The translations under genes were made by a program, and so were the position numbers. Below the pieces are notes generated by a model, which saw only the letters and a program-made list of their open reading frames with translations, did no database searches and was not told the DNA's origin. From Actinomycetes bacterium (lineage in GTDB: Bacteria > Actinomycetota > Actinomycetes > JAWWOW01), in assembly GCA_045807285.1 (NCBI GenBank), contig JBJMHR010000021.1, positions 90,612 through 154,611 on the forward strand: a stretch of DNA of 64,000 nt, read 5' to 3'. Position 1 is the stretch's first letter; each line of letters begins with the position of its first letter. Below are positions 7,317-52,302 of this stretch, one piece after another.

Positions 7317-7327
7317 CGGGAGGTGGA

Positions 7328-7963: not shown

Positions 7964-7966
7964 GCA

Positions 7967-19010: not shown

Positions 19011-19457
19011 ATGACCGCCATGAGACCTGGCTCACCAGATTCACCATGCTTACGCGATGGCAACCTATTGCTGACCATCGGCCTCCCGGCTCTTCTCGTG
19101 TCGGTTCCCACCGCACGAGGGTTTGCCGCCCACGCGTGCGAAGAGTTCGGCGTGAGCACTGACTCGACGGAACGCGTCGAGCTCGTTGTATCCGAACTGT
19201 CGGCGAACGCTGTCAAGCATGCGGGTGGCGCCTTTCACCTCGCGCTGATCAAGACGTCCGCCGGAGTGCTCGTGGAGGTCGAAGACCCGCTCACCTGTGC
19301 TCCCCCGGTCGCCAGCCGTCCGGATGCAGATGCCGAGACCGGTCGAGGGCTGCAGGTTGTCGAGCAGCTATCCGACGACTGGGGCTGCGAGGCGCTGCCG
19401 GACGGCAAGCGCATGTGGGCACAGGTGCGGGATCAACCGCTCGTGACGACGACCTGA
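19011..19457 (+). CDS. Anti-sigma regulatory factor-like Ser/Thr kinase (RsbW-like HATPase_c)
   Basis: ELVVSELSANAVKHAGG (N-box) and GRGLQVVEQLSDDWG (G-box), about 148 aa. Confidence 0.65.
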   Translation: MTAMRPGSPDSPCLRDGNLLLTIGLPALLVSVPTARGFAAHACEEFGVSTDSTERVELVVSELSANAVKHAGGAFHLALIKTSAGVLVEVEDPLTCAPPVASRPDADAETGRGLQVVEQLSDDWGCEALPDGKRMWAQVRDQPLVTTT

Positions 19458-22243: not shown

Positions 22244-24509
22244 CGAGTCCTCGCGTTTCAGTTGGGTCTCGACTTGACAGAGTGGTCAGGCGCCGGATTC
22301 GTACGACGAGGCGCCCAGCAATCCGGACAGCACGGCGCCGCTGGAGCCCGGCCCCGTCACCGAGCAACCGAGGCCAGCTGACGCTCAGCCGGTGCTGCGT
22401 CCGGAGCAGGTGCTGCCGCCACCGCGGCAGCCGGCGGAGTTGGTCGAAGCTCAGCCCGACGTAGGGCTGCCAGGCAGTCCGGTATCCCAGGCCGTACGCG
22501 TTGACAGGCAGGTCGCCGGGGAAGCCCGGGGGGGGTCCCGCGATGTCGTAGGAGTCGCGGAAGCCGCGCGGCGGGTCGGCGTACCGGTGCAGGAACTCGA
22601 AGTCGACGACGTAGACGCGGCCAGTGGCCGTAACGATCAGGTTGCCCGGCGTGAAGTCGATGAGCGCGACCCCCTGCGCGAACAGGTACTCCGCGACGGC
22701 CATCGCCTCGTGCACCACGCTCAGGGGCAGCAGACGTGGATGCCTACGGTCGAAGCGCAGCGTGTTCTCGCGGTACGGAAGTACGACGGAGTCCGCGTCC
22801 GCACTCACGAGCGGAAGGAGCTGGCGGCTACCGGGCGCAAGCTGCTCGGCAACGAACCGCTCGCGGGCGGCGAACCGCTCACATCCCGGTCGAAATCGCT
22901 TCCGCACCTGCAAGTCACCATCGTGCGCAACAAGCTCGATGCGGGCCCGTCGCCCGTGCGCCGTGAGCTCACGGATGCAGTCCGGCGCGGGGGCAAATGC
23001 CGCCGTCAGCTGTTCGGTTCGGCTGATCAGCCGGCGCGCGAGCCGCGGCAGCGCGCACTTCAGATAGTCGACGGCCTCATCGGCGTTGTCGCTCGAATGC
23101 AGGATGTTGCACTGCTCGGAGGCGGCCCGGGTCGCGTTGAACTCATCGCGGATCTCGCGCTTCACGAGCAAGCGAGCGTTGCCGAGCGCGGGCCACGTCT
23201 GCCGCCTGCGCGCGTCCACCGGAGCCGGCATGACGTCGACGGCGACGACGACGATCGCTGGCGGGCCGCCCGAGATGGGATACGGCCCGCGTTCCCAGTT
23301 CCCACCGCGAACCGCGGTGGCGACACGATCTCTCGCCGCGCAGTCGAGCGGGCTCGTGTGCAGCACGGTGAAGCCCTCGGCTGCGATGCGCGCGACGATG
23401 CCGTCGACCGCACCGGCAGCCACCGCCTGCTCGCGGATGAAGAAGACGGCGAGACCGTCAACCGCGTCTCCCGTCGGCCGGCTCGCGAGCTGCGCCGCCC
23501 ACGGGTTGATGACGGCCAGCCGATGCAGCACGTCCCGTGACGGTCGCAGGCCGTGCTCGCTCAGGACTGCGTCGAGTTCCTGCAGCGATCGAGGCGGCTC
23601 GATGCCGGCAACCGTCGCCGTTCGAGCCAGCGCGGTGAGGTAGTCGTGGTCGCGGCACTGCTCTGGCGCGTCACCGCGGTGCACGGGCAAGCCGCTCGCT
23701 GCCCCCTTGTGGTAGGCGACGTGGTAGGCGAGCGCCAGAAACGCGTCATGCGGGTTCGGCACCGGAAAGCGGCCGCGGAGCAGCTCGGCGCGCGCCACGA
23801 TGCGCTGCGCGAGCCGCGGCGGAAAGTAGGCCATTGCCTGGAAGTCGGTGCCGGGTAGCCCGGACACCGAGTAGACGTCGCATGGTTCGGTGCCGGGCCG
23901 CTCCGCGAGCACTGCGTCGACCAGCGGAAGGTCCTGATCGCGCACGAGCAGGTCGAGGTCCTCCCCCGGCGGCAGGTCCGGTAGGTCGTCGTACCACCGA
24001 AGGACGACGAACTGCGCGCCCGCCGCCGTCAACCGGTCGAGGAACCCGCCGGGGCCGTCCGCGGCGGAGTACCACCGTCGCGCCGTCGGCTCGCGTTGAC
24101 GCACCACAGAGAACAGGTCGGCGCGCACCGCCGAGTCGGCAAGGTTCACCTGACCGCATGCCTGCAACCTGCCGCGGGCGAGGTCGCGGCGGATTCGGAC
24201 GATGCCCGCTGGCCGGGCGCGGGTGCGCAGGACCGCGACGTGCGCTGCACCGCTGAGGTCACGGAACCGCAGGCCGGCCACGTTGACTCGTGGATCGAGC
24301 AGTACGACGTCCGTGCTCGAGCGCCGTACCCGAGCGGGCCAGTCGGCATCCGGAGGCACCACTAAGCAACGCTCGCCCCATGTCCGCAGCAGCAGTCCGG
24401 ATACGCGGTCGTCCGCCGTCACGGCGATCAACCGCCCGCGGCCGCTGGCGGCGGCAGCAAGAGCGCCGGTCCGCGCCGGTTCTGCGACAGCAGTGCTCAT
24501 ACGAGACAC
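22236..24509 (-). CDS. Large cytoplasmic protein: N-terminal NTP_transf_5-like nucleotidyltransferase domain fused to C-terminal Kdo/WaaP-like kinase-fold domain
   Basis: N-terminal AGAQFVVLRWYDDLPDLPPGEDLDLLVRDQD matches the uncharacterised nucleotidyltransferase (hhLKG...DhDLLV) pattern. C-terminal LIDFTPGNLIVTATGRVYVVDFEFLHRY matches the protein-kinase-like HGD..PGN...hDFE catalytic/Mg loops. Confidence 0.55.
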   Translation of the reverse strand: MSRMSTAVAEPARTGALAAAASGRGRLIAVTADDRVSGLLLRTWGERCLVVPPDADWPARVRRSSTDVVLLDPRVNVAGLRFRDLSGAAHVAVLRTRARPAGIVRIRRDLARGRLQACGQVNLADSAVRADLFSVVRQREPTARRWYSAADGPGGFLDRLTAAGAQFVVLRWYDDLPDLPPGEDLDLLVRDQDLPLVDAVLAERPGTEPCDVYSVSGLPGTDFQAMAYFPPRLAQRIVARAELLRGRFPVPNPHDAFLALAYHVAYHKGAASGLPVHRGDAPEQCRDHDYLTALARTATVAGIEPPRSLQELDAVLSEHGLRPSRDVLHRLAVINPWAAQLASRPTGDAVDGLAVFFIREQAVAAGAVDGIVARIAAEGFTVLHTSPLDCAARDRVATAVRGGNWERGPYPISGGPPAIVVVAVDVMPAPVDARRRQTWPALGNARLLVKREIRDEFNATRAASEQCNILHSSDNADEAVDYLKCALPRLARRLISRTEQLTAAFAPAPDCIRELTAHGRRARIELVAHDGDLQVRKRFRPGCERFAARERFVAEQLAPGSRQLLPLVSADADSVVLPYRENTLRFDRRHPRLLPLSVVHEAMAVAEYLFAQGVALIDFTPGNLIVTATGRVYVVDFEFLHRYADPPRGFRDSYDIAGPPPGFPGDLPVNAYGLGYRTAWQPYVGLSFDQLRRLPRWRQHLLRTQHRLSVSWPRLLGDGAGLQRRRAVRIAGRLVVRIRRLTTLSSRDPTETRGLDG

Positions 24510-28029: not shown

Positions 28030-28932
28030 TCATGCGATGCCCCACCCGTCGAACGGGCCGCGCACGTAGGGACGGATACGTCGGACGTCAACGGCCAGCC
28101 GGGACTGCAACTCGGCACGTACGTCCGGGGAGATCTCCACCATGTCTTGCAAGTCCGGTTGCAGCGCTTCGCGCCGTCGCAATCGGGTCTTGACGGTGCC
28201 TGGGAGCGCCCGCGCTACGCCTTGCAACACGGGATGACCGACAGCGCGTGGTCGGGTACGGAAGCGCGTCGCTCGGTTCAGGTGTGGTACGTCGTTGCGG
28301 GGCACCCATGACGTGTCGACGCCCAGGAAGCCGAACACTTCCCGCATCGCCGCGCGTGGCTCCTGCCAGAGCCATTCCGACGTGATCACGCAGACCCGAC
28401 CGGCCGGGTAGTGCTCCAACCACTGATCGAGCTGCAGCGCGTAGGAGCTTGCGTCCACGTACTTCGGTTGGCCGAGCAGCGCGCCGCCCGCGGAGCCGTA
28501 CCGGCCGATCCGCGACCAGCCCGCCGGCGGCGTGCCGACCACCGCGCGGCGCACGTCGTGCTCGTATTGCGACCGCATGCGCTCGATCGGCTCGCGTACG
28601 ACGTACACCAGGCGCGCTTGCGGAACGACCGACGCGGCACGCCCGGCGACGCCGGCGAGCTGCGGGCTCTGCGTGTACGTGACGGAGGCCTCACCGCGAA
28701 CCGCTTTATGTGCGCCCTTGGTGAACTGCTGCGCGTACCACGGCACGCCCTGGCGCCAGTTGCGCTCAGCGACGAAGAAGTGCAGCTCCTTCGGCTGGGA
28801 CATGAAGATCTCGGGGTGCTCGGACAGGGCCTGGTGCAGGCTCGTCGACCCGGCACGCATCGCGCCGATCACAAGGAGGTTGGGCAACGTGGTTGCGCTT
28901 GCGGCGGCGGTCATAGCTTGCTGGACTGCCAT
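28030..28932 (-). CDS. Sulfotransferase family protein (paralog 3)
   Basis: LLVIGAMRAGSTSL. KELHFFVAERNWRQGVPWY. LVYVVREPIERMRSQY. Confidence 0.8.
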   Translation of the reverse strand: MAVQQAMTAAASATTLPNLLVIGAMRAGSTSLHQALSEHPEIFMSQPKELHFFVAERNWRQGVPWYAQQFTKGAHKAVRGEASVTYTQSPQLAGVAGRAASVVPQARLVYVVREPIERMRSQYEHDVRRAVVGTPPAGWSRIGRYGSAGGALLGQPKYVDASSYALQLDQWLEHYPAGRVCVITSEWLWQEPRAAMREVFGFLGVDTSWVPRNDVPHLNRATRFRTRPRAVGHPVLQGVARALPGTVKTRLRRREALQPDLQDMVEISPDVRAELQSRLAVDVRRIRPYVRGPFDGWGIA

Positions 28933-31048: not shown

Positions 31049-31447
31049 ATGCTGCGGCCGCGCAAGTTCTTCGGATCGACGCAGTCCGCTCGCAACCGAC
31101 GCGCAGAAGAGCCGGCGGCACGACGCTGCTGGGCTACGCCGTCGGTGCACACCTTGATGGACATCGCGAAACTTCCTCGTGCCGGCGACTACGACCTCGA
31201 GCGGCGTACACCTGTCGTGCGCGAGTGGGACCTCCTGGGTTACGGCGTCCTCATGACGCTCGACGGTGTACTGCACGCGCTCGACCCGATCGCGTACCGC
31301 GCCTGGCAGCTGCACAAGCAGCACCGCCCGGACGATGAAGTCGCTTTCGCACTCACGGCCGAGTGGGAGGTCGACTACGACCTCGCGCACCGGGGCGTCA
31401 CCGCCGTGCTGAGCAGACTGGGCGAACCCGCTGCAGCTGGTGTTTGA
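31049..31447 (+). CDS. PqqD-family (RRE) peptide-chaperone-like protein
   Basis: ATG at 31049 with an AGGAGG SD at 31038-31043. The C-terminal 80 aa (WDLLGYGVLMTLDGVLHALDPIAYRAWQL...DDEVAFALTAEWEVDYDLAHRGVTAVLSRL) fit the PqqD fold pattern. The ORF-track start at 30983 lacks an SD. Confidence 0.6.
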   Translation: MLRPRKFFGSTQSARNRRAEEPAARRCWATPSVHTLMDIAKLPRAGDYDLERRTPVVREWDLLGYGVLMTLDGVLHALDPIAYRAWQLHKQHRPDDEVAFALTAEWEVDYDLAHRGVTAVLSRLGEPAAAGV

Positions 31448-32321
31448 CGTGATCGAGCTCACCGGCATACCGACCCAACGGGGCCAGCTCGAGGACCTCT
31501 GGCTGGAAGTCATGTTCGACTTTCTGGGCACCACCGTCTGTCTGGTCTCAGCGAACATCGAGCACATCCAGCACTGGTGCGCGGTCTACTCCGAGTTCCG
31601 CGTCCCCCGGCGCTCCGCCGACGTCACGGTCCGGGTGAGCGATCGCGTCTCGAAGATCGCGCCGCGTGGTGTGACACTGGAAACCGGCGAAAGCATCTCG
31701 GTCTGGGACGGACGGGCACCGTTGATGCCGCCGCTGCGCGCACCGGGACTGGACCGCTACATCTACCTGCAGGGTGCCGCAACCGGCCGGGCCGGGCATG
31801 CAGCACTGATGATCGGCGGCCCCCGCTCGGGCCGTACGACGCTCGCCACCTCATCTGCCGCACGCGGGGCGCGGCTGCTCGCCGACGACCTGATCCCGCT
31901 CGACCCCGACGACCTCCTCGCCATGCCGTGGCCCAAGGCGCTTGCGCTCCCCAGCGACGTGCTCGTACAGCTCGGCGTGGACCCCAGCCTGCCCGGCCTG
32001 GTTCCCTTCGTCACCCGGGCCGGTGACCTGCGCTGGCGGATCGCACCGTCCGCACTCTTCGGCAAACAACTCGCGCGGGTGCCAACCGACGTTGCGGCCG
32101 TCGTGTTCATGGAGCCGACCGGGCAGGAGCCAACCGGACTGAGCGACGTCTCCCCCGGCGAGGCCTTCGAACGGCTCGTGCGGCATCTCGAGGTCCGGCC
32201 GGTCGACCGCGAGCGGACCACCGACGCGCTCGTGCGGCTCTGCCGGCGCGTGCCCACGCTCGCGTTGCGGCCCAGCACGCCTGCAGACGACGCCGCGCTC
32301 ATCGATGCGCTGCTCCGCTGA
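31440..32321 (+). CDS. HprK-related kinase-like protein (HPr kinase C-terminal domain homolog)
   Basis: MIGGPRSGRTTLATSSAARGARLLADDLIPLD matches the HprK P-loop/GxRLVADD signature (GDSGVGKSE...GHRLVADD). An 8-nt overlap with the upstream PqqD-like gene indicates translational coupling. Confidence 0.6.
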   Translation: MFDVIELTGIPTQRGQLEDLWLEVMFDFLGTTVCLVSANIEHIQHWCAVYSEFRVPRRSADVTVRVSDRVSKIAPRGVTLETGESISVWDGRAPLMPPLRAPGLDRYIYLQGAATGRAGHAALMIGGPRSGRTTLATSSAARGARLLADDLIPLDPDDLLAMPWPKALALPSDVLVQLGVDPSLPGLVPFVTRAGDLRWRIAPSALFGKQLARVPTDVAAVVFMEPTGQEPTGLSDVSPGEAFERLVRHLEVRPVDRERTTDALVRLCRRVPTLALRPSTPADDAALIDALLR

Positions 32322-36578: not shown

Positions 36579-37762
36579 AAGTTCTCTACGTCTGCCTCGA
36601 CCCGGGCATCCCGGTGGGGTCGGCAAAAGGTGCATCGGTGCACGTCTGCGAGATGATCCGGGCGCTTGCGCAAGAGGGTCATGAGACGGCGCTGATCGCC
36701 CGTGAGGTCGTGGCCACCCCTGTCGCGCCGAGCCTGGTCACCGAGCTCGGCCCGCCGCCGCACGGTCGTCGCCTGCCACTCATCGGGGCGGCGGTCATGC
36801 GGTACGACGACAGGCGGGTTCGCCGTGCAGTGTCGGCAGCACTACGCCGGTTCGGACCTGACCTCGTCTACGAGCGGTACGCCCTCGGGCGCTCGGCGGT
36901 TGGCTCCATCGCGCGCAGGCACGGCGCCCGCCGGCTGCTCGAGGTCAACGCGCCGCTCGTGGCCGAACGCGCGCTCGTTGCCGGACGGAACCCGAGTGCG
37001 GCTGCAACCGCTGCAGAACAGGCGACGTGGCGTAGCGCCGACCTCGTCGTCGTGCCGTCCCATCCACTCGCCGACCTCGTCCGCAGTGCGGGGCAGCGAA
37101 ACGTCGTCGTCGCGCCGAACGCCGTCGACCCAGATCTGTTCACGCCTACGACCGGCTCGTCGACCGCGCTGCGCGAAAGGCTCGGACTGACCGACCGGCT
37201 CGTGGTCGGCTTCGCCGGTAGCGCCCGGATCTGGCACGACCTGCCGACGCTGGTTGCCGCGGTCGCGATGCTGCCAGCGCGGATGCGCGCCGCTCTGCTG
37301 GTGATCGGCGCGTCCCCACCCGAGGACGTCGTGTCCGATGCGACGCGTCGCGGCGTTGTACTCATCGCGACCGGGCCACTGCCCCATCAGGCCGTACCCG
37401 CACATCTGGGTTGCGTCGACGTCGCGGTCGCAAGCCTGCGGCCGGATCCGAACCTGTCCTACTTCTCGCCGTTGAAGGCCCTCGAATACCTCGCGTCCGG
37501 TTGCCCGACGGTGGTCGCAGACGTCGGCGACCTGCGCGCGCTCGCCGAATGCGGTGTCGCGATGTCCTATCGTGCCGGCGAAGCTGCGAGCCTGGCAGCG
37601 GCAGTGACCAGAGTCGCCAGCGATGCGAGTCTCCAACAACGGCTCCGCGAGGCGGGCCGTGCGTATGCGTTGACGCGCACATGGCGCAACGTCGCTGCGA
37701 TGGTGGTACGGGCGAGGAACGACTCCATCGCCCGCACCGATGAGCCAGTGAGCACCTCATGA
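36575..37762 (+). CDS. Glycosyltransferase family 4 (second copy)
   Basis: GTGA overlap start. MKVLYVCLDPGIPVGSAKGASVHVCEMIRAL N-terminus. C-terminal EX7E-like region (SPLKALEYLASGCPTVVADVG). Confidence 0.8.
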   Translation: MKVLYVCLDPGIPVGSAKGASVHVCEMIRALAQEGHETALIAREVVATPVAPSLVTELGPPPHGRRLPLIGAAVMRYDDRRVRRAVSAALRRFGPDLVYERYALGRSAVGSIARRHGARRLLEVNAPLVAERALVAGRNPSAAATAAEQATWRSADLVVVPSHPLADLVRSAGQRNVVVAPNAVDPDLFTPTTGSSTALRERLGLTDRLVVGFAGSARIWHDLPTLVAAVAMLPARMRAALLVIGASPPEDVVSDATRRGVVLIATGPLPHQAVPAHLGCVDVAVASLRPDPNLSYFSPLKALEYLASGCPTVVADVGDLRALAECGVAMSYRAGEAASLAAAVTRVASDASLQQRLREAGRAYALTRTWRNVAAMVVRARNDSIARTDEPVSTS

Positions 37763-38895
37763 GCTCCGCAAGGCCGTCAAAGGTCGCGGCTGTCGCCATG
37801 TCCGCCGGTGTGCTGTTCGGGCTCATCGGCTGCGCAGGCTCGCCGCACCCGAAAGCGCCGGTCGTGACGACACCGCCCACGGCGTCCGCGTCGCCGACAC
37901 CGTTGCGGACTGCGGGCTTCGCGTTCGGCTTCTACTCGGCCGGGTTGCGGCTCGTGGACTGTTACGGCACCTGCCGGCCCGGCACGAAGGAGTACGCCGA
38001 GCAGCAGGCCAACCGGCAACGGATGGCGGACCTGCAGGCAAAGCACGTCACGTTCGTGACGAACAACGAGAGCCTCGTGAAGGTGTACCGCCACTACCCG
38101 GATGCGGTGCTGACCTACCTCAACGAGCTCCATGCGCACCACATCCGGGTGTCGTACTCCGCCGCCTCGGGCGCCGGCATGTGGTTCACGCATGGTGTGT
38201 TCGATCCGACCGCCGCGCGAACGGCATTCGCCCGGACCGACCTGAACCACGACGGGGTGTCCGACCTCGACGGCCGACTGGACTTGCTCTACCAAGGCCA
38301 CGAGGTGCTGGAGTGGGCCACACACGCGCAACGCGTGCAGATCTACCGCGTGGCCAAGAAGTGGTTCCCGCACACGCCGGTGGCCTTCTACTACGCCGGC
38401 ATGTACCGGCCGTTCGACCCTGCCTGGGCGAACCGGTCACATGCCGGTGGCCCCGGCGGCGTCTGGCGTGACTACGCGTACGGCCCTGGCGAGGCCGACG
38501 TCGTCCTCGTCAACGTGCGCCGCAATGCAACACCGGACACGCTCGACAACGTGGACGAGGGGGGCGGCGGCTTCAATGCGGCCGCCTTCGCCGCAGCCGC
38601 ACGCAAGACTGTGGACGTCGTGCACCGCAGCACACCGAGTGTGCCGATCTTCGTCTCGACGAACATCGCGAGCGACACTGCGATGGCGAGCAATCCGGCG
38701 GCGATGTGGAGTGCCACCGATCTCACCTCGTGGTACCACGCGCTTGCTGCCATTCCGGGTGTCGCCGGAGTGCAGCTGCGCAGCTACGGGCGCTTCACGT
38801 ATGACCTCGCGAATCCGCGCTACTCCGGTCAACAGGCCACCTGGAGCAGCCTCGGCGCGCTCGCCGCGCGGCACCCGACCAAAGGATCGCTATGA
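37759..38895 (+). CDS. Secreted lipoprotein of unknown function (possible glycan-processing enzyme)
   Basis: ATGA overlap start. Lipobox LIGC. 378 aa with a globular W/Y-rich domain. No motif recognised. Confidence 0.55.
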   Translation: MSSARPSKVAAVAMSAGVLFGLIGCAGSPHPKAPVVTTPPTASASPTPLRTAGFAFGFYSAGLRLVDCYGTCRPGTKEYAEQQANRQRMADLQAKHVTFVTNNESLVKVYRHYPDAVLTYLNELHAHHIRVSYSAASGAGMWFTHGVFDPTAARTAFARTDLNHDGVSDLDGRLDLLYQGHEVLEWATHAQRVQIYRVAKKWFPHTPVAFYYAGMYRPFDPAWANRSHAGGPGGVWRDYAYGPGEADVVLVNVRRNATPDTLDNVDEGGGGFNAAAFAAAARKTVDVVHRSTPSVPIFVSTNIASDTAMASNPAAMWSATDLTSWYHALAAIPGVAGVQLRSYGRFTYDLANPRYSGQQATWSSLGALAARHPTKGSL

Positions 38896-40118
38896 CGATG
38901 GTCTACGTGCTCGGGGCCTTTCCCAAAGTCTCCGAGACATTCATCTCCGGAGAAATCGCCGAGCTACGGCGCCGGGGCGTAGACGTCACGGTCTTCTCGC
39001 TGAGACACCCCCTGGAGCCGGGGCCGGCGCAGCCGGAGGACGCCGCGATCCTCGACTGCACCACCTACCTACCGGTCGGGCGGCGCGGGACGTTGTGCAT
39101 GGCGGCCGAGGTGATGCGACTGTTCGCTGAGCATCCCGGTCGTGCCACCGGCACAGCGTGGTGGGCGCTACGCCGCGCGATGACCGCGATGAGCAGGGGC
39201 GACCTGCTTCGATTCGCGCAGGCCGCCTACATCAGCCGCCGACTGCCCGAGTCAGCGGAACACCTGCACGCGCACTTCGCGCACGGTCCGGCCACGTGCG
39301 CGGCCATGGTGTCCCGGCTCTGCGGCGTGCCCTACTCGTTCACCGCACATGCGCGGGACATCTTCGAGTACGCCGACAAAAGGTCCGTGCGCGACAAGGT
39401 AGCCACGGCACGAGTTGTCATCGCGATCAGCGAGCACGGTGGTCGTCGCGTTGTGGAGCTCGCAGGTGACCGCCATGCCGACCGCGTTCAGATCGTGCCC
39501 AACGGCATCGACTTGACCCGGTTCGCGCGGCGAGCGACCGAACCGACCGGGCCACCCCGCGTGCTGTGCGTGGGTCGCTTGGTGGAGAAGAAGGGCCAGG
39601 ACACGCTGCTGCGCGCAATCGGGATGCTCGCCGACGAAGGGCGCATGGTGCAGTGCGAGCTCATCGGTGCGGGTCCGCTCCGGGCCGAGTTGGAGCGGAC
39701 TGTCCACTGGCTCGGCATCGGCGCCCACGTGAGCTTCCGTGGTTCGCTCGATGCCATCGGAGTGCGGGCGGCGTACGACGCAGCAACCGTGTTCGCGCTG
39801 CCTTGTCAGACCGACTCTCACGGCGACCAGGACGGCCTGCCGGTGAGCCTCGTCGAGGCCATGGCGGTGGGCGTCCCGGTGATCAGCACCGGGATCGCTG
39901 GGATCCCGGAGCTCATCACCGACGGCGTCTCCGGGTTGCTCGTCGAGCCACACGACGCGCGCGGGTTGGCGGACGCGATTGCGCGCGTGATCGACGAGCC
40001 CGCCCTGCGCCGCTCGTTGACACATGCAGCACGGCAGGTCGCCGAGGCATACGACCGGACCCTGACCACCCAGCGCCTGCTGCAGGCCACCGGGATGGAG
40101 TACGCCCGTGCCCAGTAA
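38892..40118 (+). CDS. Glycosyltransferase family 4 (third copy, WcaL-like architecture)
   Basis: ATGA overlap start. N-terminal FPKVSETFISGEIAELRRRG. C-terminal DGLPVSLVEAMAVGVPVISTGIAGIPE. Confidence 0.8.
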   Translation: MTMVYVLGAFPKVSETFISGEIAELRRRGVDVTVFSLRHPLEPGPAQPEDAAILDCTTYLPVGRRGTLCMAAEVMRLFAEHPGRATGTAWWALRRAMTAMSRGDLLRFAQAAYISRRLPESAEHLHAHFAHGPATCAAMVSRLCGVPYSFTAHARDIFEYADKRSVRDKVATARVVIAISEHGGRRVVELAGDRHADRVQIVPNGIDLTRFARRATEPTGPPRVLCVGRLVEKKGQDTLLRAIGMLADEGRMVQCELIGAGPLRAELERTVHWLGIGAHVSFRGSLDAIGVRAAYDAATVFALPCQTDSHGDQDGLPVSLVEAMAVGVPVISTGIAGIPELITDGVSGLLVEPHDARGLADAIARVIDEPALRRSLTHAARQVAEAYDRTLTTQRLLQATGMEYARAQ

Positions 40119-41028
40119 CCGGAGCCGTGACCGGTCGGAACCGGTCGTCACGTTCTGCGTCGTCGGCGCGGGCAAGGCCGGGACGACGTGGCTGTTCGAG
40201 GTGCTGAGAGCGCATCCGGACGTCGTCATGGCGCGGGCCAAGGAAACGATGTACTTCGACGCGCAGTACGGCCGCGGCGTCGAGTGGTACCACTCGATGT
40301 TCCCTGCTGATGCGGTCGCGCCGACCGGTGAGGTCTCGAACACCTACCTCACTGCACCGTCCGCGCCCGCGCGAATAGCGGCGTACAACCCGCAAATGCA
40401 GCTCATCGCCTTGCTGCGTGACCCAGTGGACCGGGCGATGTCCAACTACCTCTTCTTCCTGCGCAACGGGCAGGTGCGCGGTTCGTTCGAGGAGGCGCTG
40501 GAGGCTCGGCCGGACCTGCTCGACCACGGCTTTTACGGACGCCACCTGCAGAACTACCTCGGGCACTTCCCAATGTCAGCCGTGCATCTCGAAGCGTTCG
40601 ACGACTTGGCGGCCGACCCGCACTCCGTTGCCGCGCGCGTGCTCACTCATCTGGGCTTGCCGGACACAGAGATACCGGCCGTCGCGGGCAGCCAGGTGCT
40701 TGCCGCGAGCGCACCGCGCAGCCGCGCAGTCGCGGCAGTGATGAAGAGCGGCGCCGTCATGGTCCGGCAGCTCGGTGCACCTGGCTTTGTCACCCGCGTC
40801 AAACGCGGGTCGCTGCCGCGGTATCTGTACCGGCCGCTCTCCGCCCGTCCCACGATGTCGCCGGAGACATCGGCCCGCTTGCGCGAGCTCTACACCGATG
40901 ACGTCGAGCTGCTCACGACATTGACGGGCCGCCACTGGGCGGACCTGTGGTGGGAACGCGAGCACGGAAAAGCCCTCGGGCGGAGCGACGGTCTCCCGTC
41001 CGCCCCGCCCGAGGGTGTCAGGCTCTAG
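40108..41028 (+). CDS. Sulfotransferase family protein (paralog 4)
   Basis: FCVVGAGKAGTTWL. KETMYFD...GRGVEWY. LIALLRDPVDRAMSNY. Confidence 0.8.
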   Translation: MPSNRSRDRSEPVVTFCVVGAGKAGTTWLFEVLRAHPDVVMARAKETMYFDAQYGRGVEWYHSMFPADAVAPTGEVSNTYLTAPSAPARIAAYNPQMQLIALLRDPVDRAMSNYLFFLRNGQVRGSFEEALEARPDLLDHGFYGRHLQNYLGHFPMSAVHLEAFDDLAADPHSVAARVLTHLGLPDTEIPAVAGSQVLAASAPRSRAVAAVMKSGAVMVRQLGAPGFVTRVKRGSLPRYLYRPLSARPTMSPETSARLRELYTDDVELLTTLTGRHWADLWWEREHGKALGRSDGLPSAPPEGVRL

Positions 41029-42857
41029 TAGCCGTGCCCTGAAAGCCAGGCCGACTTCGCACTGTTCCAGACGTTGATGTCGTTGGTCATCGTGACGCCC
41101 GCCGGCAGCTTGCCCGGGTAAGGCTTGCTGCTGGTCCACACGAACTTCACATTGGTGAACGTGCCGGTCGGCCAGCTGTCGGCGCACTCATGGTTGCCGT
41201 AGTCCTGCCGGATGACGACGTTCTTGAGGTTGACCGGGCCGTGGAAACCGTCCATCTTCCACATCGGGCCGTTGGCCTTGCCGTTGATGACCCACTGCGT
41301 GCAGCTGCCGCCGGAGGTGCTTCCCGGCTCGGGCTGCACGTAGAACAGCGAGTCCTGGATGTCGACCTTGAACGCCTTGGTGCTGCCGTTGGAGGACCGC
41401 CACGAGATACCGGTGTGGCAACCGTCGAACAGGCTGTCCCGCACGATCAGATCTCCGTGCGTGATGTCGGAGATGCAGTCGTCGCGCGTGTACGTCTCGT
41501 ACACACCGTCGTACGTCACCGGCGCAGAGTTCCAGGTGCGAATACCGTCGACGCCAGCGTTGTCGATCCGGACGTCCTTCAGGTACGCCGACCCGTTGAG
41601 CGTGACGCCGGCACCGTTGCAGCACTGCTTCATCTGCCACCACTTGATCGTGCGGTCGATGTTGCTGTTCACGGTGACACCGACCAGGCAGTTGCTGGAT
41701 CCGTTGAGCGTGACCGGGGTCAGGCTGCTCGTGGTCTCCGTGTACGTCGCACCACGACCGTCGTACGTCGTGCTGCTTGCGCCATCGCTGAACGTCGAGC
41801 CGCTGTGCATGGTCACGGTGTGCGTCGGGCAGGTGGTCGGCACTGTGCCACCGGAGGTGGGCGGCGACTGACCGGGCACCGGGCTACCACTCGGCGACGG
41901 CTGCGGACTCGGGCCACCACTTGGCGGCGGAGTCGGCTGACCGGTCGGGCTCGTCGACGGCTGCGGGGACGGATTGGAACCACCGGAGTGCGCCGCAGTC
42001 CAGCGAGCCTTCGCGTTGTCCCACACGCTGACGTCGCGGGTCATCGTGACACCGGCCGGCAGCTTGCCCGGGTACGGCTTCGAGTTGTTCCAGACCAGCC
42101 AGACGTTGTTGTACGTGCCGCTGGGCCACGTGTCGACGCACTGGTAGTTGGCAAGGTCCATGCGGATCACGACGTTGGTGACGGTGACGCCCTTCTGGAC
42201 GCCGTCCATCTTCCACATCGTGCCGTTGTCCTTGCCACCTTGGACCCACGACTTGCAGTTGCCGCCGCCGCCGTGGTCAGTCATCGGCTTGATGTAGAAC
42301 AGGCTGTTCTGCACGTTGACGGCGAACGGGGTGTGGTTGTTGTTGTTCGTCGACCGCCACGAGATGCCCGTGTGGCAACCATCGAACAAGCTCCCGCGCA
42401 CATCAAGGGCCCCGTGCGTGATGTCGGAGATGCAGTCATCACGAGTGTCCGTCGAATGGGCACCGATGATGGTCGTCGCGGCATGGTTCCAGGTACGGAT
42501 GCCGTCCACGGCGATGTTCTGGGTCCGCGCGTTCACCAAGGTGACGTTTCCGGAATCGACCGTTATGGCAGCGCCGTTGCAACACTGCTTCAGCTGCCAC
42601 CAGGTCTGGCTCGCCGGGAAGTTACCGGTGACGCTGACGCCGGCATAACACTGGTTGTTGCCGGAGACCCGGATGGGGGTCAGGTTGCTTTTGCTCTGCT
42701 GGTAGGTGCCGCCGTTATGCGCACTCGTTCCAGCTGGGCAGGCTGCGCTCGGTGACGACGTCGTCGCGTTCGAGTGCGCCAACAACACCGCGGCCGGGCC
42801 AACGATTGGCGCCGTCAGCGCCAGCGCGCTTACCGCCTTGACCAACCCGATTCGCAT
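41025..42857 (-). CDS. Secreted protein with two tandem homologous Cys-rich ~240-aa domains separated by a Pro/Ser/Thr linker
   Basis: Signal peptide. Domain 1 (aa ~35-285) and domain 2 (aa ~345-610) share WWQ.KQCCNGA...VDGIRTWN...RDDCISDITHG.L.VR.SLFDGCHTGISWRS...GKLPAGVTMT. The linker is PSPQPSTSPTGQPTPPPSGGPSPQPSPSGSPVPGQSPPTSGG. Confidence 0.6.
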   Translation of the reverse strand: MRIGLVKAVSALALTAPIVGPAAVLLAHSNATTSSPSAACPAGTSAHNGGTYQQSKSNLTPIRVSGNNQCYAGVSVTGNFPASQTWWQLKQCCNGAAITVDSGNVTLVNARTQNIAVDGIRTWNHAATTIIGAHSTDTRDDCISDITHGALDVRGSLFDGCHTGISWRSTNNNNHTPFAVNVQNSLFYIKPMTDHGGGGNCKSWVQGGKDNGTMWKMDGVQKGVTVTNVVIRMDLANYQCVDTWPSGTYNNVWLVWNNSKPYPGKLPAGVTMTRDVSVWDNAKARWTAAHSGGSNPSPQPSTSPTGQPTPPPSGGPSPQPSPSGSPVPGQSPPTSGGTVPTTCPTHTVTMHSGSTFSDGASSTTYDGRGATYTETTSSLTPVTLNGSSNCLVGVTVNSNIDRTIKWWQMKQCCNGAGVTLNGSAYLKDVRIDNAGVDGIRTWNSAPVTYDGVYETYTRDDCISDITHGDLIVRDSLFDGCHTGISWRSSNGSTKAFKVDIQDSLFYVQPEPGSTSGGSCTQWVINGKANGPMWKMDGFHGPVNLKNVVIRQDYGNHECADSWPTGTFTNVKFVWTSSKPYPGKLPAGVTMTNDINVWNSAKSAWLSGHGY

Positions 42858-42891
42858 GATGACTAGTCCCTTCCGATGGGGTGCTTGGGCC

Positions 42892-42946: not shown

Positions 42947-43151
42947 CCGAACGGCCTAACTCATGGACGACATGCAGCGCGTATCCGGCATAACGACGCG
43001 TCCTAGGTGCCCAAAGTCGCGAACTACGTCACGCCCGTAAAGCACTACCGCTCTTGTGGTCATTTGGGTGAGTGCGTCCACCGACGTTTCTATGACGACG
43101 CAGCGTCACCACTCTCTTAATCTGCTCGCTCAGCACTTGGAAAGGCGAGCA

Positions 43152-43511
43152 ATGTCCGTTCCACGTCGGGGTTACCCGGTCCACGGCGACCAGCCGCGGA
43201 TCGTCGACGTACCAGCCCCTCGCGACCGTCAGCTCAACCACCGGCGGTGGACGGAACTGGTCAACCAGCTGTTACCCCCGTTGTGGAGTGCTCTCAGCAC
43301 TGAGCGTGCTCCGGTGGAGATGCGGCACGAGGCCTGCGTGGTCGCTTGGTTGCGGCTCACGCAACAGCCGGAGGTCGTGACTGAGGCAGACACGGCAACG
43401 TGGCTGCTCACGACCGCACGCATCGAGCTGGGCCGGGTGCTTGCTCGCTACGAAATGGTTGCCCGCGAGGTTCTCAGGAACCCGCGCGGAGACAAAGGAG
43501 CCCTGCCGTGA
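43152..43511 (+). CDS. Sigma-70 region-2-like small protein (truncated ECF-sigma-like)
   Basis: RWTELVNQLLPPLWSAL...HEACVVAWLRL resembles sigma regions 2.1-2.2 only. Its stop overlaps the start of the downstream ECF sigma gene (GTGA). The ORF-track start at 43056 is an alternative. Confidence 0.4.
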   Translation: MSVPRRGYPVHGDQPRIVDVPAPRDRQLNHRRWTELVNQLLPPLWSALSTERAPVEMRHEACVVAWLRLTQQPEVVTEADTATWLLTTARIELGRVLARYEMVAREVLRNPRGDKGALP

Positions 43512-44113
43512 CCGTTGTGACCGTCGACGCTGAAGACCTCGTACGACGTGCTGGGACCGGAGACCGGACCGCGTGGACGGGCCTCGTCGACGCCTACGCC
43601 GGGATGATCTTCAGCATCGCCCGCTCGCACCGGCTCAGCGAGGCAGACGCGACGGACGTCAGCCAGACCACGTGGTTGCGCCTGATAGAGCATCTCGACC
43701 GGATCAACGACCCGTCGCGCGTGGGTGCCTGGCTCGCGACGACGGCCCGGCGCGAGAGCCTGCGCGTCATCGGCATCTCCTCACGCCAACTGCCGACCGG
43801 CGAGAGCACCGAGCTCGAGCCACGCATCCGTTCTGACGTCGAGCTCGACGCAGCGTTGCTCGCCAGCGAACGCGACGCTCGGCTGCAGAAGGCGCTCGCG
43901 CAGCTGCCGGCACGCTGCGTCACGATGCTCCTGCTGCTCACGGGCGATGACGCGCTGAGCTACCAGGAGATCTCCGAACGCCTGGGCATGCCGGTCGGAT
44001 CGATCGGCCCGACCAGGGCCCGGTGCCTGCAGAAGCTGCGGGTAATCCTCGACGAGATGGATGCCGAAGACGCCGAACCGGCAGCCCACGTAGGAGTACG
44101 TGTGCAAGCATGA
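43508..44113 (+). CDS. RNA polymerase ECF-type sigma factor
   Basis: Region 2 (WTGLVDAYAGMIFSIARSHRLSEADATDVSQTTWLRLIEH) and region 4 (LPARCVTMLLLLTGDDALSYQEISERLGMPVGSIGPTRARCLQKLR). GTG start at 43508; the ORF track gives 43400. Confidence 0.75.
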   Translation: MTVVTVDAEDLVRRAGTGDRTAWTGLVDAYAGMIFSIARSHRLSEADATDVSQTTWLRLIEHLDRINDPSRVGAWLATTARRESLRVIGISSRQLPTGESTELEPRIRSDVELDAALLASERDARLQKALAQLPARCVTMLLLLTGDDALSYQEISERLGMPVGSIGPTRARCLQKLRVILDEMDAEDAEPAAHVGVRVQA

Positions 44114-44167: not shown

Positions 44168-44584
44168 GTGTCGAGGGGTGACCGAACGGTCATGGAACCC
44201 GTGCCGGAGGTCGTGCGCCAAGCGGCGTTGCAGGCTTTCGACTTGCGTGTCCCCGATGCAGAGCTCGCCGAGCTCATCTACGACCCCCTGCTGGACGCCG
44301 ACGGCTCGCAGCTGCACGGGGGCGAACGGGTACTGCACTTCTCGACGGGTCAGGACAGCGTGATGGTTGGCGTCACGCACCTGCAAAGCGGCTTGCGCCT
44401 CACGGTCGCGCTCGTCCCACCCTCGACCGCTCGGGTCGAGCTACGGAACCCGACCGACAGCTGGCATCTCGTCGCCAACGAACTCGGTCGGCTCTGTGTC
44501 GACTCGGTCCCGTCCGGCCCGGTCAGCCTCGTCATCCGCCGCGAGGGCGTCCGACCGATCCAGACCTCGTGGGTGCGCATCTAG
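44168..44584 (+). CDS. Hypothetical protein (138 aa)
   Basis: Protein-like composition downstream of the ECF sigma gene. It overlaps the convergent LuxR gene by 144 nt, so one of the two 3' ends is probably over-extended. Confidence 0.35.
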   Translation: MSRGDRTVMEPVPEVVRQAALQAFDLRVPDAELAELIYDPLLDADGSQLHGGERVLHFSTGQDSVMVGVTHLQSGLRLTVALVPPSTARVELRNPTDSWHLVANELGRLCVDSVPSGPVSLVIRREGVRPIQTSWVRI

Positions 44585-45328
44585 GTCGATGGTCCGGTCC
44601 TCGTCCGAGTAGCCGGGCGAACCGTCGGTGAACAGCCGTCGCCCCTCGGCTGCTGCTTGCAGCTGGCTGTGCACGTCCAGCTTCCCCATGATGTGTTGAA
44701 GGTGCGTGCGCACAGTGTGCTGTGACAGACCGAGCGTGCCGGCGATGTGTCGGCTGCTCCGACCGTTCGACAGCAGCCGCAGGACCTCTTGCTCGCGCGG
44801 TGTCAGCCGGGCCATCTCGAGCGCTTGAGCTGACGCGACCGCCTGGCTCAGATGCAGCTGGGCGAGAACGGGTTGGGCAAGGTGGCTGGGCAGCACGAAT
44901 CCCCCGGCCAAGACCTGGCGGATCGCGGACAGCAACGTCTCCGGCTTGGCGTCCTTACCGCAGAAGCCGTGCGCGCCGAGCTGGAGCGCACGCGCGATCG
45001 TCGCCACGTCCTCGCTGCCACTCAGGATCAGAACTTTGACCGCCAGCCCCATGTGGCTGAGCGCCTCCACAACGGTGAGACCGTCACCACGGACGTCATC
45101 CAGCCCCAGATCGAGGACCAGCAGATCCGCACCCTTCCGGACCAGCCGCAGCGCCTCGTCCGCGTCGTACACCGCCTCGACGCTGCCGACCTCGGGCAGG
45201 TCGATCAGGTAGGGCACGAGCGCGTCCGTGAAGACCCGGTGATCGTCACAGACGACCACTCTCAGGCCAGATGACAGCACGCTTGACTCCGAGCATCGGG
45301 ACGGCGCGAATCGCACCAGGACACGCAC
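44441..45328 (-). CDS. LuxR/NarL-family response regulator (canonical receiver) with ~70-aa C-terminal tail
   Basis: Receiver motifs VVVCDDHRVF, DLLVLDLGLDD and KVLILSGSED. HTH LTPREQEVLRLLSNGRSSRHIAGTLGLSQHTVRTHLQHIMGKL. Confidence 0.7.
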   Translation of the reverse strand: MRVLVRFAPSRCSESSVLSSGLRVVVCDDHRVFTDALVPYLIDLPEVGSVEAVYDADEALRLVRKGADLLVLDLGLDDVRGDGLTVVEALSHMGLAVKVLILSGSEDVATIARALQLGAHGFCGKDAKPETLLSAIRQVLAGGFVLPSHLAQPVLAQLHLSQAVASAQALEMARLTPREQEVLRLLSNGRSSRHIAGTLGLSQHTVRTHLQHIMGKLDVHSQLQAAAEGRRLFTDGSPGYSDEDRTIDLDAHPRGLDRSDALAADDEADRAGRDRVDTEPTEFVGDEMPAVGRVP

Positions 45329-45394: not shown

Positions 45395-46246
45395 ATGACG
45401 TATCTGGCCGAGCGGTCACGTTCTCTCCGAGGCGTGCTCCCGACGTTCGCAGTGATCGGCGCCATGAAGGCCGGCACAACGGCTGTTTACCGCGGGCTGA
45501 GCGACCATCCCGACGTTTTCATGTGTACGCCGAAGGAACCGCAGTTCTTCACCACGCGGTGGGAGCGCGGTTTGCATTGGTACGAAGGTCTGTTCGCCGC
45601 CGCGGGCAACGCGCTCGCCCGCGGGGACGCATCTACCAGTTATACGGACTTTCCTCGCAAATCGGATGCGGCTCGGCGGATGGCGCTGATCGTGCCGGAC
45701 ATCCGGCTGGTGTACGTCGTACGCGACCCGGTCGCACGGATGCGGTCGCACTACCGCCACCGGGTGGCCCAGGGGGTGGAGACACGTCCCATCGAGCGCG
45801 CGTTGCTGGACGAGCGTTACCTGCTACGCAGCAGCTACGCCTTGCAGATCGAGCAGTACGCCGCAAAGTTTCCGCGGTCGCAATTACTGGTCCTTGACGC
45901 AGCTGACCTCCTGGCCGGCGGCACGAGTTGGTCGCGCTTGTTCGAGTTCATCGGCGTTGGCGCGCTCGACGCTGCACCGCTTCTGCCGCGCGCAAACGAA
46001 ACGGCCGCGCGGCTAGAGATGCGCCCGGCCGCAAGAGCGCTGCGGCAACGGGCCAAGGGGACGACGCTCTATCGCCTGGCGCCGGCACGCGCGCGCACCG
46101 TTGCGCGCAGGTTCGGCCGCAGGCCGCCTTCCGAGCACGACGATGCGACGATCAGCGCGGATCTATGTGCAGAGATCCGCGCGCGGTTGCACGACGACGT
46201 CGAGCAGTTCGCGGAGATGACCGGAATCCGGTTCAAGGAGACCTGA
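45395..46246 (+). CDS. Sulfotransferase family protein (paralog 5)
   Basis: FAVIGAMKAGTTAV. KEPQFFTTRWERGLHWY. LVYVVRDPVARMRSHY. Confidence 0.8.
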   Translation: MTYLAERSRSLRGVLPTFAVIGAMKAGTTAVYRGLSDHPDVFMCTPKEPQFFTTRWERGLHWYEGLFAAAGNALARGDASTSYTDFPRKSDAARRMALIVPDIRLVYVVRDPVARMRSHYRHRVAQGVETRPIERALLDERYLLRSSYALQIEQYAAKFPRSQLLVLDAADLLAGGTSWSRLFEFIGVGALDAAPLLPRANETAARLEMRPAARALRQRAKGTTLYRLAPARARTVARRFGRRPPSEHDDATISADLCAEIRARLHDDVEQFAEMTGIRFKET

Positions 46247-50298: not shown

Positions 50299-52302
50299 GT
50301 GACGGACGAGACTGCGCGCGGGCAGGACATCGGGAAAAGGCGCGCAGGCGACACCGGCTGGGCAGCCCGAATCTGGGCCGAGCTGCCCCGCGGGCGCACC
50401 TTGCCCGAGGCCTCGTGGCGAGTGCGGCATCGCGCCGTCGTTGCTCTCCTCATCGCCCATGCCGTGGTCCTCGGCATCGTGGTCGTCGCGATACACGCCC
50501 CGGCCTTCTCCGCCGTCGTCGACGTCGCCGTTCCGGCTGTCGGGGCTTACACCGCTTCGCGCCGGAACTTGTCGCGCAACGTACGCAGCTCAATCGCAGC
50601 AGTCAGCCTGATGTTGACCTCGACCGTCGTCGTACATCTCATGCACGGCCTGATCGAAGCCCACTTCCACTTCTTCGCGATGATCCCGATCGTCGCGCTG
50701 TACGAGGACTGGGTGCCGTTCGGTCTCGCGGCGGCGATCGTGCTCCTGCATCACGGAGTGATGGGGACGATCGACCCGCAGTCCGTCTACAACCATGCAT
50801 CGGCAACCGGACATCCCTGGCGCTACGCGTTCATCCACGCAGCCTTCTTCGCGGCCGCATGCATCGGCAGCGTCATCAACTGGCGCCTGCACGAGAAGTC
50901 ACGGGAGGTGGAAAAGGATCTGGCCGCGCAGATGCGTTATCGCGCGCTGCACGACTCACTGACGGGGCTGCCGAATCGTGCGCAGCTGTTGCAGCACGCG
51001 CAGACCCTGCTCGAAGATGCCGCCGCGGACCGGATCGCCGTGCTGATGGTCGACCTTGACCGATTCAAAGAGATCAACGACGCGCTCGGGCATGCGGCCG
51101 GCGACAAGCTGCTCGCAGAGATCGGCCCCCGCCTTGCCGGTGCGGTGCGCAGCGGCGACCTGTTCGCCAGGTTGGGCGGCGACGAGTTCGCTGCCGTGTT
51201 GGGCGGCGCCAACGCAAATGTCGCCATCGACGTGGCCCAGCGCTTGCTGAACGTGCTCGAAGAACCCGTCGAGGTCGACGGAGTGCGCTTCAACGTCGAC
51301 GCGAGCGTTGGCATCGCGGTGATCCACGCGAGCGAGTGTGAGGACATCAGCACGCTGTTCCGGCAAGCCGACATCGCGATGTACACGGCCAAGCGCGAGC
51401 GAAGCGGCTTCGCGCTCTACCACACCGACCAGGACACGCTGACCCGCGAAGGCCTGATGCTGCTCGCGGAGCTGCGCCAGGCGATGGCACGCGACGAGAT
51501 CGTTCTTCACTACCAGCCCAGGGTGATGCTGCCCGGCGGCGAGCTCGACGGCGTCGAAGCGCTCGCCCGTTGGCAGCACCCGACGCGTGGGCTGCTCGCT
51601 CCGAGCGAGTTCATCCCGATGGCGGAGAGCACCGGGCTCATCGTGCCGCTGACCCTCCACATCCTCGACGTCGCAGTGGACCAGATGTGCGCCTGGCAAG
51701 CGGCCGGGCACGAGTTCACCGTTGCGGTGAACCTCTCGCCGCGGTGCCTGGCCGACCCGGATCTGCCCCGGCAGATTCTGTCGCGCATCCACGACCTCGA
51801 CCTGCCCTCGGACTGGTTGCGCCTCGAGATCACCGAGAACACCCTCGCCCACAACCCGGAGCGTGCGCAGGCAACGCTCACTGCGCTGGCCGCATCAGGC
51901 ATCCGGATCTCCATCGACGACTTCGGTACCGGTTACTCGTCGATGGCCTACCTCAAGCGGCTTCCCGTGGACGAGCTGAAGGTGGACCGGTCGTTCGTTG
52001 CCGGCATGCTCGTCCACGTCGACGACGAAGTGATCGTGCGGTCGGTCGTCGACCTCGGCCACAACCTCGGCCTCACCGTCGTCGCCGAAGGAGTCGAGGA
52101 CCAGGCGACCCAAGACGCACTGACAGCGATCGGCTGCGACGTGGTGCAGGGCTTCTACACGGGACGGCCGATGACGGTCGACTTCTTCAACGCCTGGTTG
52201 GCCGAGCGATCCGCCGCCACGGAGGCCGCCGAACTGAGCCCGAGAGCCGCGCTCCCCCGACCGCGGCAGGGCGTGCACCGCTACGCGGCGGTTGTCGGTT
52301 GA
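50299..52302 (+). CDS. Membrane-associated GGDEF/EAL domain protein (c-di-GMP cyclase/phosphodiesterase)
   Basis: N-terminal ~6-TM sensor. GGDEF (RLGGDEFAAVL). EAL (LHYQP..., EITENT, DDFGTGYSS, KVDRSF). Confidence 0.9.
   Translation: MTDETARGQDIGKRRAGDTGWAARIWAELPRGRTLPEASWRVRHRAVVALLIAHAVVLGIVVVAIHAPAFSAVVDVAVPAVGAYTASRRNLSRNVRSSIAAVSLMLTSTVVVHLMHGLIEAHFHFFAMIPIVALYEDWVPFGLAAAIVLLHHGVMGTIDPQSVYNHASATGHPWRYAFIHAAFFAAACIGSVINWRLHEKSREVEKDLAAQMRYRALHDSLTGLPNRAQLLQHAQTLLEDAAADRIAVLMVDLDRFKEINDALGHAAGDKLLAEIGPRLAGAVRSGDLFARLGGDEFAAVLGGANANVAIDVAQRLLNVLEEPVEVDGVRFNVDASVGIAVIHASECEDISTLFRQADIAMYTAKRERSGFALYHTDQDTLTREGLMLLAELRQAMARDEIVLHYQPRVMLPGGELDGVEALARWQHPTRGLLAPSEFIPMAESTGLIVPLTLHILDVAVDQMCAWQAAGHEFTVAVNLSPRCLADPDLPRQILSRIHDLDLPSDWLRLEITENTLAHNPERAQATLTALAASGIRISIDDFGTGYSSMAYLKRLPVDELKVDRSFVAGMLVHVDDEVIVRSVVDLGHNLGLTVVAEGVEDQATQDALTAIGCDVVQGFYTGRPMTVDFFNAWLAERSAATEAAELSPRAALPRPRQGVHRYAAVVG

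Follow-up and report, generated by a model that had tools for sequence, protein, structure and literature searches.

Which task falls to a secreted protein that carries the same unfamiliar domain twice and is encoded among sulfotransferase and glycosyltransferase genes? We addressed this question for one open reading frame (ORF) in a stretch of 64,000 nt from an Actinomycetes bacterium (assembly GCA_045807285.1, contig JBJMHR010000021.1, positions 90,612 to 154,611), referred to below as the window. An earlier, sequence-only reading of the window had described the product of this ORF as a candidate glycan-modifying enzyme with two tandem Cys-rich domains of an unrecognised family. The answer that we favor, with a probability of roughly 0.5, is that the target protein is a double-headed depolymerase of an anionic glycan, most likely of the sulfated polysaccharide made by the gene island in which its own gene lies. 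Catalysis, substrate and biological role are the parts of this answer that we infer.

Two homologous domains with a predicted beta-helix fold

The ORF starts with an ATG, and its GC content at third codon positions (0.87) is that of real genes in this window of 64–70% GC; the N-terminus is kept among the homologs. The protein begins with a stretch that reads as a signal peptide (MRIGLVKAV...LLAHSNA/TT), in which a positively charged n-region, a hydrophobic core and the cleavage motif S-N-A can be made out, and inspection of the sequence revealed no lipobox, LPXTG motif, cell-wall anchor or C-terminal membrane segment. The two domains that follow, A and B, are 51% identical over 276 alignment columns (E 2e-101), or 54% by global alignment, and all blocks that had been quoted as shared, namely WWQ[LM]KQCCNGA, VDGIRTWN, RDDCISDITHG.L.VR.SLFDGCHTGISWRS, MWKMDG and KPYPGKLPAGVTMT, are present in both of them. 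The counts given in the sequence-only reading needed small corrections: the cysteines are indeed conserved, with eight aligned in each domain instead of about seven, and the Pro/Ser-rich joiner between the domains comprises 47 rather than 45 amino acids, among them 16 Pro, 12 Ser and 9 Gly. Domain A, with about 254 amino acids, lacks an N-terminal segment of about 18 amino acids that is present in domain B, in two single-domain proteins from one Frankiaceae metagenome-assembled genome (MAG; loci L003 and L004), and in the relatives P0001-P0008. The missing segment includes the aspartate of a T[YW]D motif, which is 87% conserved in the family. Further copies of the domain were searched for in the window, and none were found. 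Taken together, the target is predicted to be a Sec-secreted, disulfide-rich protein of two homologous modules, in agreement with the original description.

The claims that the protein carries no recognised signature and belongs to an unrecognised family also held at the level of sequence. Scans of the protein and its domains with Pfam, NCBIfam and PHROGs yielded nothing significant, none of the beta-helix models of Pfam and NCBIfam, including Beta_helix (PF13229), matched the target protein even at E≤10, and a sequence-profile search of the PDB with the family alignment gave zero matches at E≤10. PF13229 was touched by just two to three distant family members (E 7e-4 to 2e-6). The fold, however, appears to be a well-known one. 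AlphaFold2 (AF2) models were built from a 55-sequence alignment, and they reached a predicted local distance difference test score (pLDDT) of 93.9 and a predicted template modelling score (pTM) of 0.92 for domain B, and values of 92.5 and 0.91 for domain A, which forms a complete beta-helix in the model despite its N-terminal loss. In both models, numerous short strands recur about every 22 residues and a helix occupies the C-terminus, and each head is predicted to be a compact right-handed parallel beta-helix of about eight rungs. The domain as modelled thus has the three-stranded right-handed parallel beta-helix with stacked rungs by which the pectin-lyase-fold superfamily is defined. The sequence-only reading had proposed profile searches and Foldseek as checks; the profile searches came back empty, and Foldseek runs with the AF2 model against PDB and BFVD returned weak, generic beta-helix matches (E≥1.7e-3, TM-score≤0.47). 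The matches from the PDB and from viruses were without exception beta-helix carbohydrate-active enzymes or tailspikes. The models indicate a known fold for a sequence family that is unnamed and uncharacterised and falls within the pectin-lyase-fold superfamily.

A word-indexed search retrieved 55 relatives, and an exhaustive profile search extended the family to 1,503 representative clusters at 50% identity (E≤1e-3), 768 of which had E≤1e-30. Matches in species-representative genomes came nearly all from MAGs, together with one cultured isolate, and the hosts belong to Actinomycetota, Acidimicrobiia, Binatia/'Deltaproteobacteria', Polyangiaceae, Chloroflexota and groups of the candidate phyla radiation. 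Conservation was counted over 194 representatives and is given in the numbering of domain B. D122, D123 and K197 are conserved in 100% of them, followed by D100 (96%), D141 (93%), C53, C124 and C143 (>92%), R121 (85%) and R150 (82%). Both domains of the target have kept all counterparts of this set, and the candidate active-site residues among them are D118, R139, D140, D141, D159, R168 and K216 in domain A, and D437, R458, D459, D460, D478, R487 and K534 in domain B (numbering of the whole protein). As we read the succession of strands in the model, rather than from measured coordinates, D100, D122 and position 144 start the equivalent strand on three consecutive rungs, and K197 comes one rung and a long loop after this three-rung acidic ladder.

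A resemblance around DDC and GHTGIS had raised the possibility of homology to glycoside hydrolase family 28 (GH28). The DD is present in the target, and Asp, His and Lys occupy sequence positions analogous to those of GH28. Nevertheless, homology was rejected, because the comparison of the family profile with the verified polygalacturonase II (PGII) by hhalign gave a probability of 0.45%; the GH28 model PF00295 did not match the target protein or its relatives either.

Sulfotransferase neighbors, fusion partners and the proposed function

The gene had been placed at the edge of an island for a sulfated glycan. By its gene content, it lies inside this predicted island rather than at the edge, because sulfotransferase genes are found on both sides of it, at 18.1, 28.0, 40.1 and 45.4 kb. 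The island, which extends from about 18 to 47 kb, also encodes GT4 and GT2 glycosyltransferases, a Wzy_C protein, a priming Bac_transf protein, an ABC-2 exporter pair, a BY-kinase-like protein and epimerases of the short-chain dehydrogenase/reductase (SDR) type. The four sulfotransferase genes of the window are distributed over about 28 kb, and the three products that were compared are 28–36% identical to each other. With four sulfotransferases next to genes for the biosynthesis and export of exopolysaccharide (EPS), the island is unusually sulfation-rich for an actinomycete. A secreted product, as judged from the signal peptide read from the sequence, and a location in the biosynthetic locus, two features of the class of EPS-locus-encoded self-polymer depolymerases, are both found for the target.

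The target gene overlaps with a convergent sulfotransferase gene by 4 nt (41025-41028). The overlap is a palindromic CTAG that contains both stop codons, and therefore there is no space for a terminator between the two genes. The Frankiaceae locus L003 is syntenic and comprises a gene for an extracytoplasmic function (ECF) sigma factor, the gene of a single-domain homolog, a convergent sulfotransferase gene and then a GT4 gene; by coordinates, this gene pair also overlaps by 4 nt (10801-10804). In two further loci, L001 and L002, fusions of a homolog with the phosphatase domain PF04185 are encoded convergently with a sulfotransferase, and a GT2 gene is present in addition. The sulfotransferases of these two loci are about 31% identical to that of the window and L003. 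The previously suggested link to glycan sulfation is therefore corroborated by the convergent pairing in the window, L001, L002 and L003. Across 68 fetched loci, a sulfotransferase gene is located within 10 kb in seven, which are concentrated in the close clade. A link of the whole family to sulfotransferases was rejected on the grounds that it belongs to this clade, and the distant family members have varied, unrelated gene contexts.

The relatives differ in their domain composition: the domain stands alone in 91 of 195 representatives, and the other 104 have extra regions. A domain scan of the fusion partners covered 93 multidomain relatives. CBM96 was detected in 20 of these, often without another catalytic domain, many have PKD or Ig modules, and PF14099 polysaccharide lyase, CBM9, SLH and CWB2 were found in single cases. 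The founding CBM96 module is an alginate-specific binder (PMC9971899). Partners such as CBM96 and the lyase are the signature of a catalytic module that acts on polysaccharides, probably on anionic ones. The lyase fusion is P0041, and on its contig (locus L067) genes for RecA, PDDEXK and MazG-like proteins and many small ORFs surround it. Such a phage-like setting points to a role as phage depolymerase.

Phosphatases of three unrelated folds are fused to the domain in at least 11 relatives, and these fusions are independent of each other. PF04185 is the partner in at least seven (P0001-P0005, P0007 and P0128), including the six that are closest to the target protein, PF00149 in P0060 and P0068, and the beta-propeller phytase PF02333 in two, P0093 among them. 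The phosphatase fusions suggest that, at the level of the family, there is a tie to polymers bearing phosphate esters or to phosphorus scavenging. It is because of the CBM96, PF14099 and phosphatase partners that we regard the domain as a probable catalytic module for anionic glycopolymers.

In the mechanism that we propose, the Sec-secreted protein would carry two independent catalytic heads on a flexible Pro/Ser linker. Each head would present an acidic cluster on consecutive rungs (D437, D459-D460 and D478, or D118, D140-D141 and D159) together with the invariant Lys (K534 or K216) and conserved Arg residues (R458 and R487), and a putative groove at this site would bind and cleave an anionic polysaccharide. 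The cleavage could be a beta-elimination in which Ca2+ assists and the Lys serves as base, the chemistry of the polysaccharide lyase (PL) families PL3 and PL9 and of RbmB, or the Asp triad could carry out an inverting hydrolysis like that of GH28. We leave the chemistry between these two options, because no gene of a uronic-acid pathway was seen in the window, and lean slightly toward a lyase. Outside of the cell, the enzyme would trim, release or remodel the sulfated surface polysaccharide or EPS of the island, and the two heads may differ in the linkages or sulfation patterns that they recognize on this polymer. The original proposal of a candidate glycan-modifying enzyme thus broadly stands, in view of the beta-helix fold and of the CBM96 and lyase-domain fusions in relatives. 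The part that does not stand is the suggested removal of sulfate: a sulfatase was rejected because the predicted fold is a beta-helix instead of the alkaline-phosphatase/sulfatase fold, and the Pfam scan gave no match to PF00884.

Several points weigh against a double-headed depolymerase of the island's own polymer. There is no homology to GH28 by hhalign and no match to a Pfam model for PL, GH or carbohydrate esterase (CE) families; neither the target nor, in 55 and 87 relatives, the part that forms the beta-helix was matched by a Pfam lyase model. The scanned ORFs of the window give no evidence of a uronic acid, although a lyase would require one: no UDP-glucose dehydrogenase was found among them, and a search of the window for genes of uronic-acid synthesis and of 3'-phosphoadenosine-5'-phosphosulfate (PAPS) synthesis found none. 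Domain A, which lacks the conserved N-terminal segment with its 87%-conserved Asp, may be functionally altered. Furthermore, the phosphatase fusions and the unrelated contexts of the distant members may mean that the family-wide substrate is not a sulfated EPS.

The same fusions favor a different view, namely that the target is a nutrient-scavenging depolymerase that attacks foreign or necromass glycopolymers with phosphate or sulfate esters, for example teichoic-acid-like polymers or phosphoglycans, and not the EPS of the producer. In this case, the beta-helix would cut the backbone and the phosphatases, which are fused to it in relatives, would free the ester group, and a protein that digests teichoic acid is known with gp12 of phi29. 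However, the target protein itself has no phosphatase domain, its gene is part of a biosynthetic island and converges closely with a sulfotransferase gene, a pairing kept in four loci, and the most common fusion partner is CBM96 and not a phosphatase. Therefore, we consider scavenging to be unlikely for the target. A modification of the nascent glycan outside of the cell, by an AlgG/AlgE-like C5-epimerase or by a CE8-like esterase that strips off or alters its substituents, is improbable. The DPHD catalytic motif of the mannuronan C5-epimerase AlgG is absent, as are QDT and DFIFG, the catalytic motifs of CE8 pectin methylesterases, and there is no Pfam match to these families (PF01095 in the case of CE8), so that both candidates were rejected; in addition, the fusions with CBMs and with a lyase domain and the phage-like context in relatives suit degradation better. 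Poorest is the case for a protein that catalyzes nothing and acts as a bivalent lectin or cross-linker of the matrix, its two heads tethering or bundling the sulfated glycan like beta-helix adhesins, because the strict invariance of the D-DD-K set in 194 diverse representatives is more typical of a catalytic center, because relatives that consist of CBM96 and this domain only would be left without a catalytic module, and because transmembrane segments, LPXTG motifs and cell-wall anchors are all missing from the target. A simple adhesin repeat, the alternative named with the sequence-only reading, is likewise disfavored by the fold and the fusion partners, which favor a glycan-acting enzyme.

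Origin of the two-domain architecture and further features of the window

The high identity of the shared blocks had been taken as a sign of a recent duplication within the gene. This was ruled out by the protein identity of 54%, by the DNA identity between the two halves, which is 72–82% in the best blocks, and by the phylogeny. Domain B shares 66% identity with the single-domain protein of the syntenic locus L003, but just 54% with domain A, and domain A is 59% identical to L004, another single-domain paralog in the same Frankiaceae MAG. In a neighbor-joining tree, the bootstrap values were 0.74 for domain B with L003 and 0.73 for domain A with L004. Judged by these comparisons, domain B is orthologous to the L003 gene and domain A groups with a different paralog. 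The two heads are probably old paralogs that were joined by gene fusion, and the absence of the segment of about 18 amino acids from domain A is best read as a loss after the fusion.

The target protein was absent from the records in an exact-protein lookup, and a collection of 5.8 billion sequences contained no protein that spans both domains, the best homolog covering at most 69% of the query. More than one copy of the family is present in 18 of the 68 loci. In one of them, L050 from a Gemmatimonadetes MAG, five paralogous family genes lie in a row (3948-12261). Single ORFs with two copies were found elsewhere: in L033 from a Bifidobacteriaceae MAG (4696-6747) the copies are 77% identical, and in P0123 from a low-GC lineage they are 71% identical and have Big_7/FN3 modules between them. 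These two ORFs are of independent origin and, like the frequent clustering of paralogs, speak for a fusion as the source of the target architecture. The coordinates of the target gene, its parts and its main neighbors are compiled in Table 1.

Table 1. Features of the target gene and its surroundings, in positions of the window
Feature	Position	Strand	Basis or remark
Whole ORF, 610 amino acids plus stop: signal peptide, beta-helix domain A, linker, beta-helix domain B	41025..42857	-	
Shine-Dalgarno-like GGAAGGG, 10 nt 5' of the ATG	42868..42874	-	Sequence reading
Sec-type signal peptide, residues 1-31, predicted cleavage after SNA	42765..42857	-	Sequence reading; N-terminal pattern kept in P0001-P0005
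Domain A, residues 37-290, predicted right-handed parallel beta-helix	41988..42749	-	AF2 model, residue map
Interdomain linker, 47 amino acids, Pro/Ser/Gly/Thr-rich, residues 291-337	41847..41987	-	Composition
Domain B, residues 338-610, predicted right-handed parallel beta-helix	41028..41846	-	
Codons R139-D140-D141, domain A	42435..42443	-	RDD of the RDDC motif; DD family-invariant
Codon K216, domain A	42210..42212	-	Family-invariant Lys
Codons R458-D459-D460, domain B	41478..41486	-	RDD of the RDDC motif
Codon K534, domain B	41256..41258	-	Family-invariant Lys
Convergent partner sulfotransferase (PF00685/PF13469)	40108..41028	+	Same pairing in L001, L002, L003
Divergent ECF sigma factor gene	43400..44113	+	Same neighbor in syntenic L003
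Other sulfotransferase (PF00685/PF13469)	18083-18928	+	
Other sulfotransferase (PF00685/PF13469)	28030-28932	-	
Other sulfotransferase (PF00685/PF13469)	45395-46246	+	

The target gene is transcribed divergently from the ECF sigma factor gene, as had been described, and an ECF sigma factor gene adjoins homologs in L003 and in L065, too. A regulatory link from the sigma factor to the target gene is one that we only infer; an alignment of the upstream regions of the window and L003 revealed no meaningful conservation of a shared promoter or ECF-type element. The sigma factor gene is overlapped from upstream by an ORF of no known family (43056-43511, plus strand), and further regulators encoded nearby are a LuxR-type response regulator (44441-45328, minus strand) and a GGDEF-EAL protein (50299-52302, plus strand).

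Several other proteins of the island are without a clear assignment to a family. In its left part, a protein of 936 amino acids with Ig-like repeats and a C-terminal LamG/ConA-like domain (19433-22243, minus strand) adjoins a protein of 757 amino acids that has no family match (22236-24509, minus strand). Matches to Pfam and NCBIfam were also lacking for the island protein encoded at 37759-38895 (plus strand) and, in the related sulfotransferase loci, for three minus-strand ORFs, L003 12913-13893, L001 11950-13320 and L002 245-1714. At the start of the plus-strand glycosyltransferase operon, the ORF at 31440-32321 (plus strand) weakly resembles HprK-related kinase A (TIGR04352, E 6e-9), with a score that does not reach the curated cutoff.

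Significance and comparison with known systems

To our knowledge, sulfated polysaccharides have long been held to be nearly confined to cyanobacteria among bacteria. For actinomycetes, a 2026 study goes no further than to predict them (PMC13390465). The window offers a compact module, which consists of an island with four sulfotransferase genes and a dedicated secreted enzyme, the relatives of which have the same sulfotransferase partner. If the domain indeed cleaves sulfated or phosphorylated bacterial glycans, the known enzyme families would be joined by a new one of about 1,500 clusters, which stem nearly all from soil and sediment bacteria that are uncultured, tools would become available for the analysis and tailoring of sulfated polysaccharides, in which industry and biomedicine take an interest, and the recurrent fusions with secreted phosphatases would be explained as nutrient mining. 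If it were merely another pectate-lyase-like depolymerase, the finding would be ordinary; the coupling with sulfotransferases and the phosphatase fusions are the interesting parts. A bolder version, which we offer as a speculation and consider unlikely, would be a new CAZy-type family (PL or GH) for sulfated or phosphorylated, hence ester-decorated, bacterial glycopolymers that co-evolved with a dedicated sulfotransferase into a "write and cut" pair for a sulfated surface polysaccharide in one actinomycete clade and is elsewhere joined to phosphatases of three different folds for the mining of phosphate from phosphoglycans, with the target as the first two-headed endo-enzyme for a bacterial sulfated EPS outside of the cyanobacteria.

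Among the characterised enzymes, the lyases PL3 (e.g., Bacillus Pel-15, PDB 1EE6, and the C. bescii PL3) and PL9 (Pel9A, PDB 1RU4) come to mind first. The Ca2+ ligands of PL3 are Asp63, Glu83 and Asp84, with Lys107 as base, and those of PL9 are Asp209, Asp233 and Asp237, with Lys273 as base (PMC10992409). The order of an acid, a pair of acids and a Lys in the family, with a conserved D/E in addition and a spacing of about one rung, is compatible with these sites, as judged from the order in the sequence and not from the three-dimensional structure. In contrast, there is no detectable sequence homology to Pel9A, and in the clade of the target E126 is replaced by Ser, the next residue being Asp (RDDCISD). 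The differences to GH28, represented by A. niger PGII (PDB 1CZF), concern the motifs themselves: NTD, RIK and the catalytic GHG are absent from the target, the sole GHG of which is located in the C-terminal tail at residue 607, and the His position is occupied by Tyr or Phe in most of the family.

With respect to the genomic setting, the target resembles RbmB, the lyase for Vibrio polysaccharide (VPS) of Vibrio cholerae (9OZD), and VexL, the Vi-antigen depolymerase (6FI2), both of which are beta-helix depolymerases encoded at the locus of their polymer. RbmB uses K227 as the Lys base (PMC12993940). However, the sequence identity is 8%, the hosts of these enzymes are Gram-negative, each enzyme has just one catalytic domain and no sulfotransferase partner, and their substrates are unsulfated. 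Closer with respect to the host are the secreted hydrolases of Actinoplanes missouriensis that are tied to EPS clusters, GimA and GimB (GH5) and WpsE (GH26). WpsE belongs to an Actinoplanes cluster with two sulfotransferases and a predicted sulfated EPS (PMC13390465), and GimA and GimB, which are paralogs, both cut the matrix polymer of their own producer, but not at the same positions (PMC12691653). In contrast to the predicted beta-helices of the target, these hydrolases are TIM barrels, and GimA and GimB are separate proteins instead of one fused polypeptide. Finally, the two-domain PL6 alginate lyases also combine two domains, but no sequence relationship to them was found, and they contrast with the target, both domains of which keep the full candidate catalytic set.

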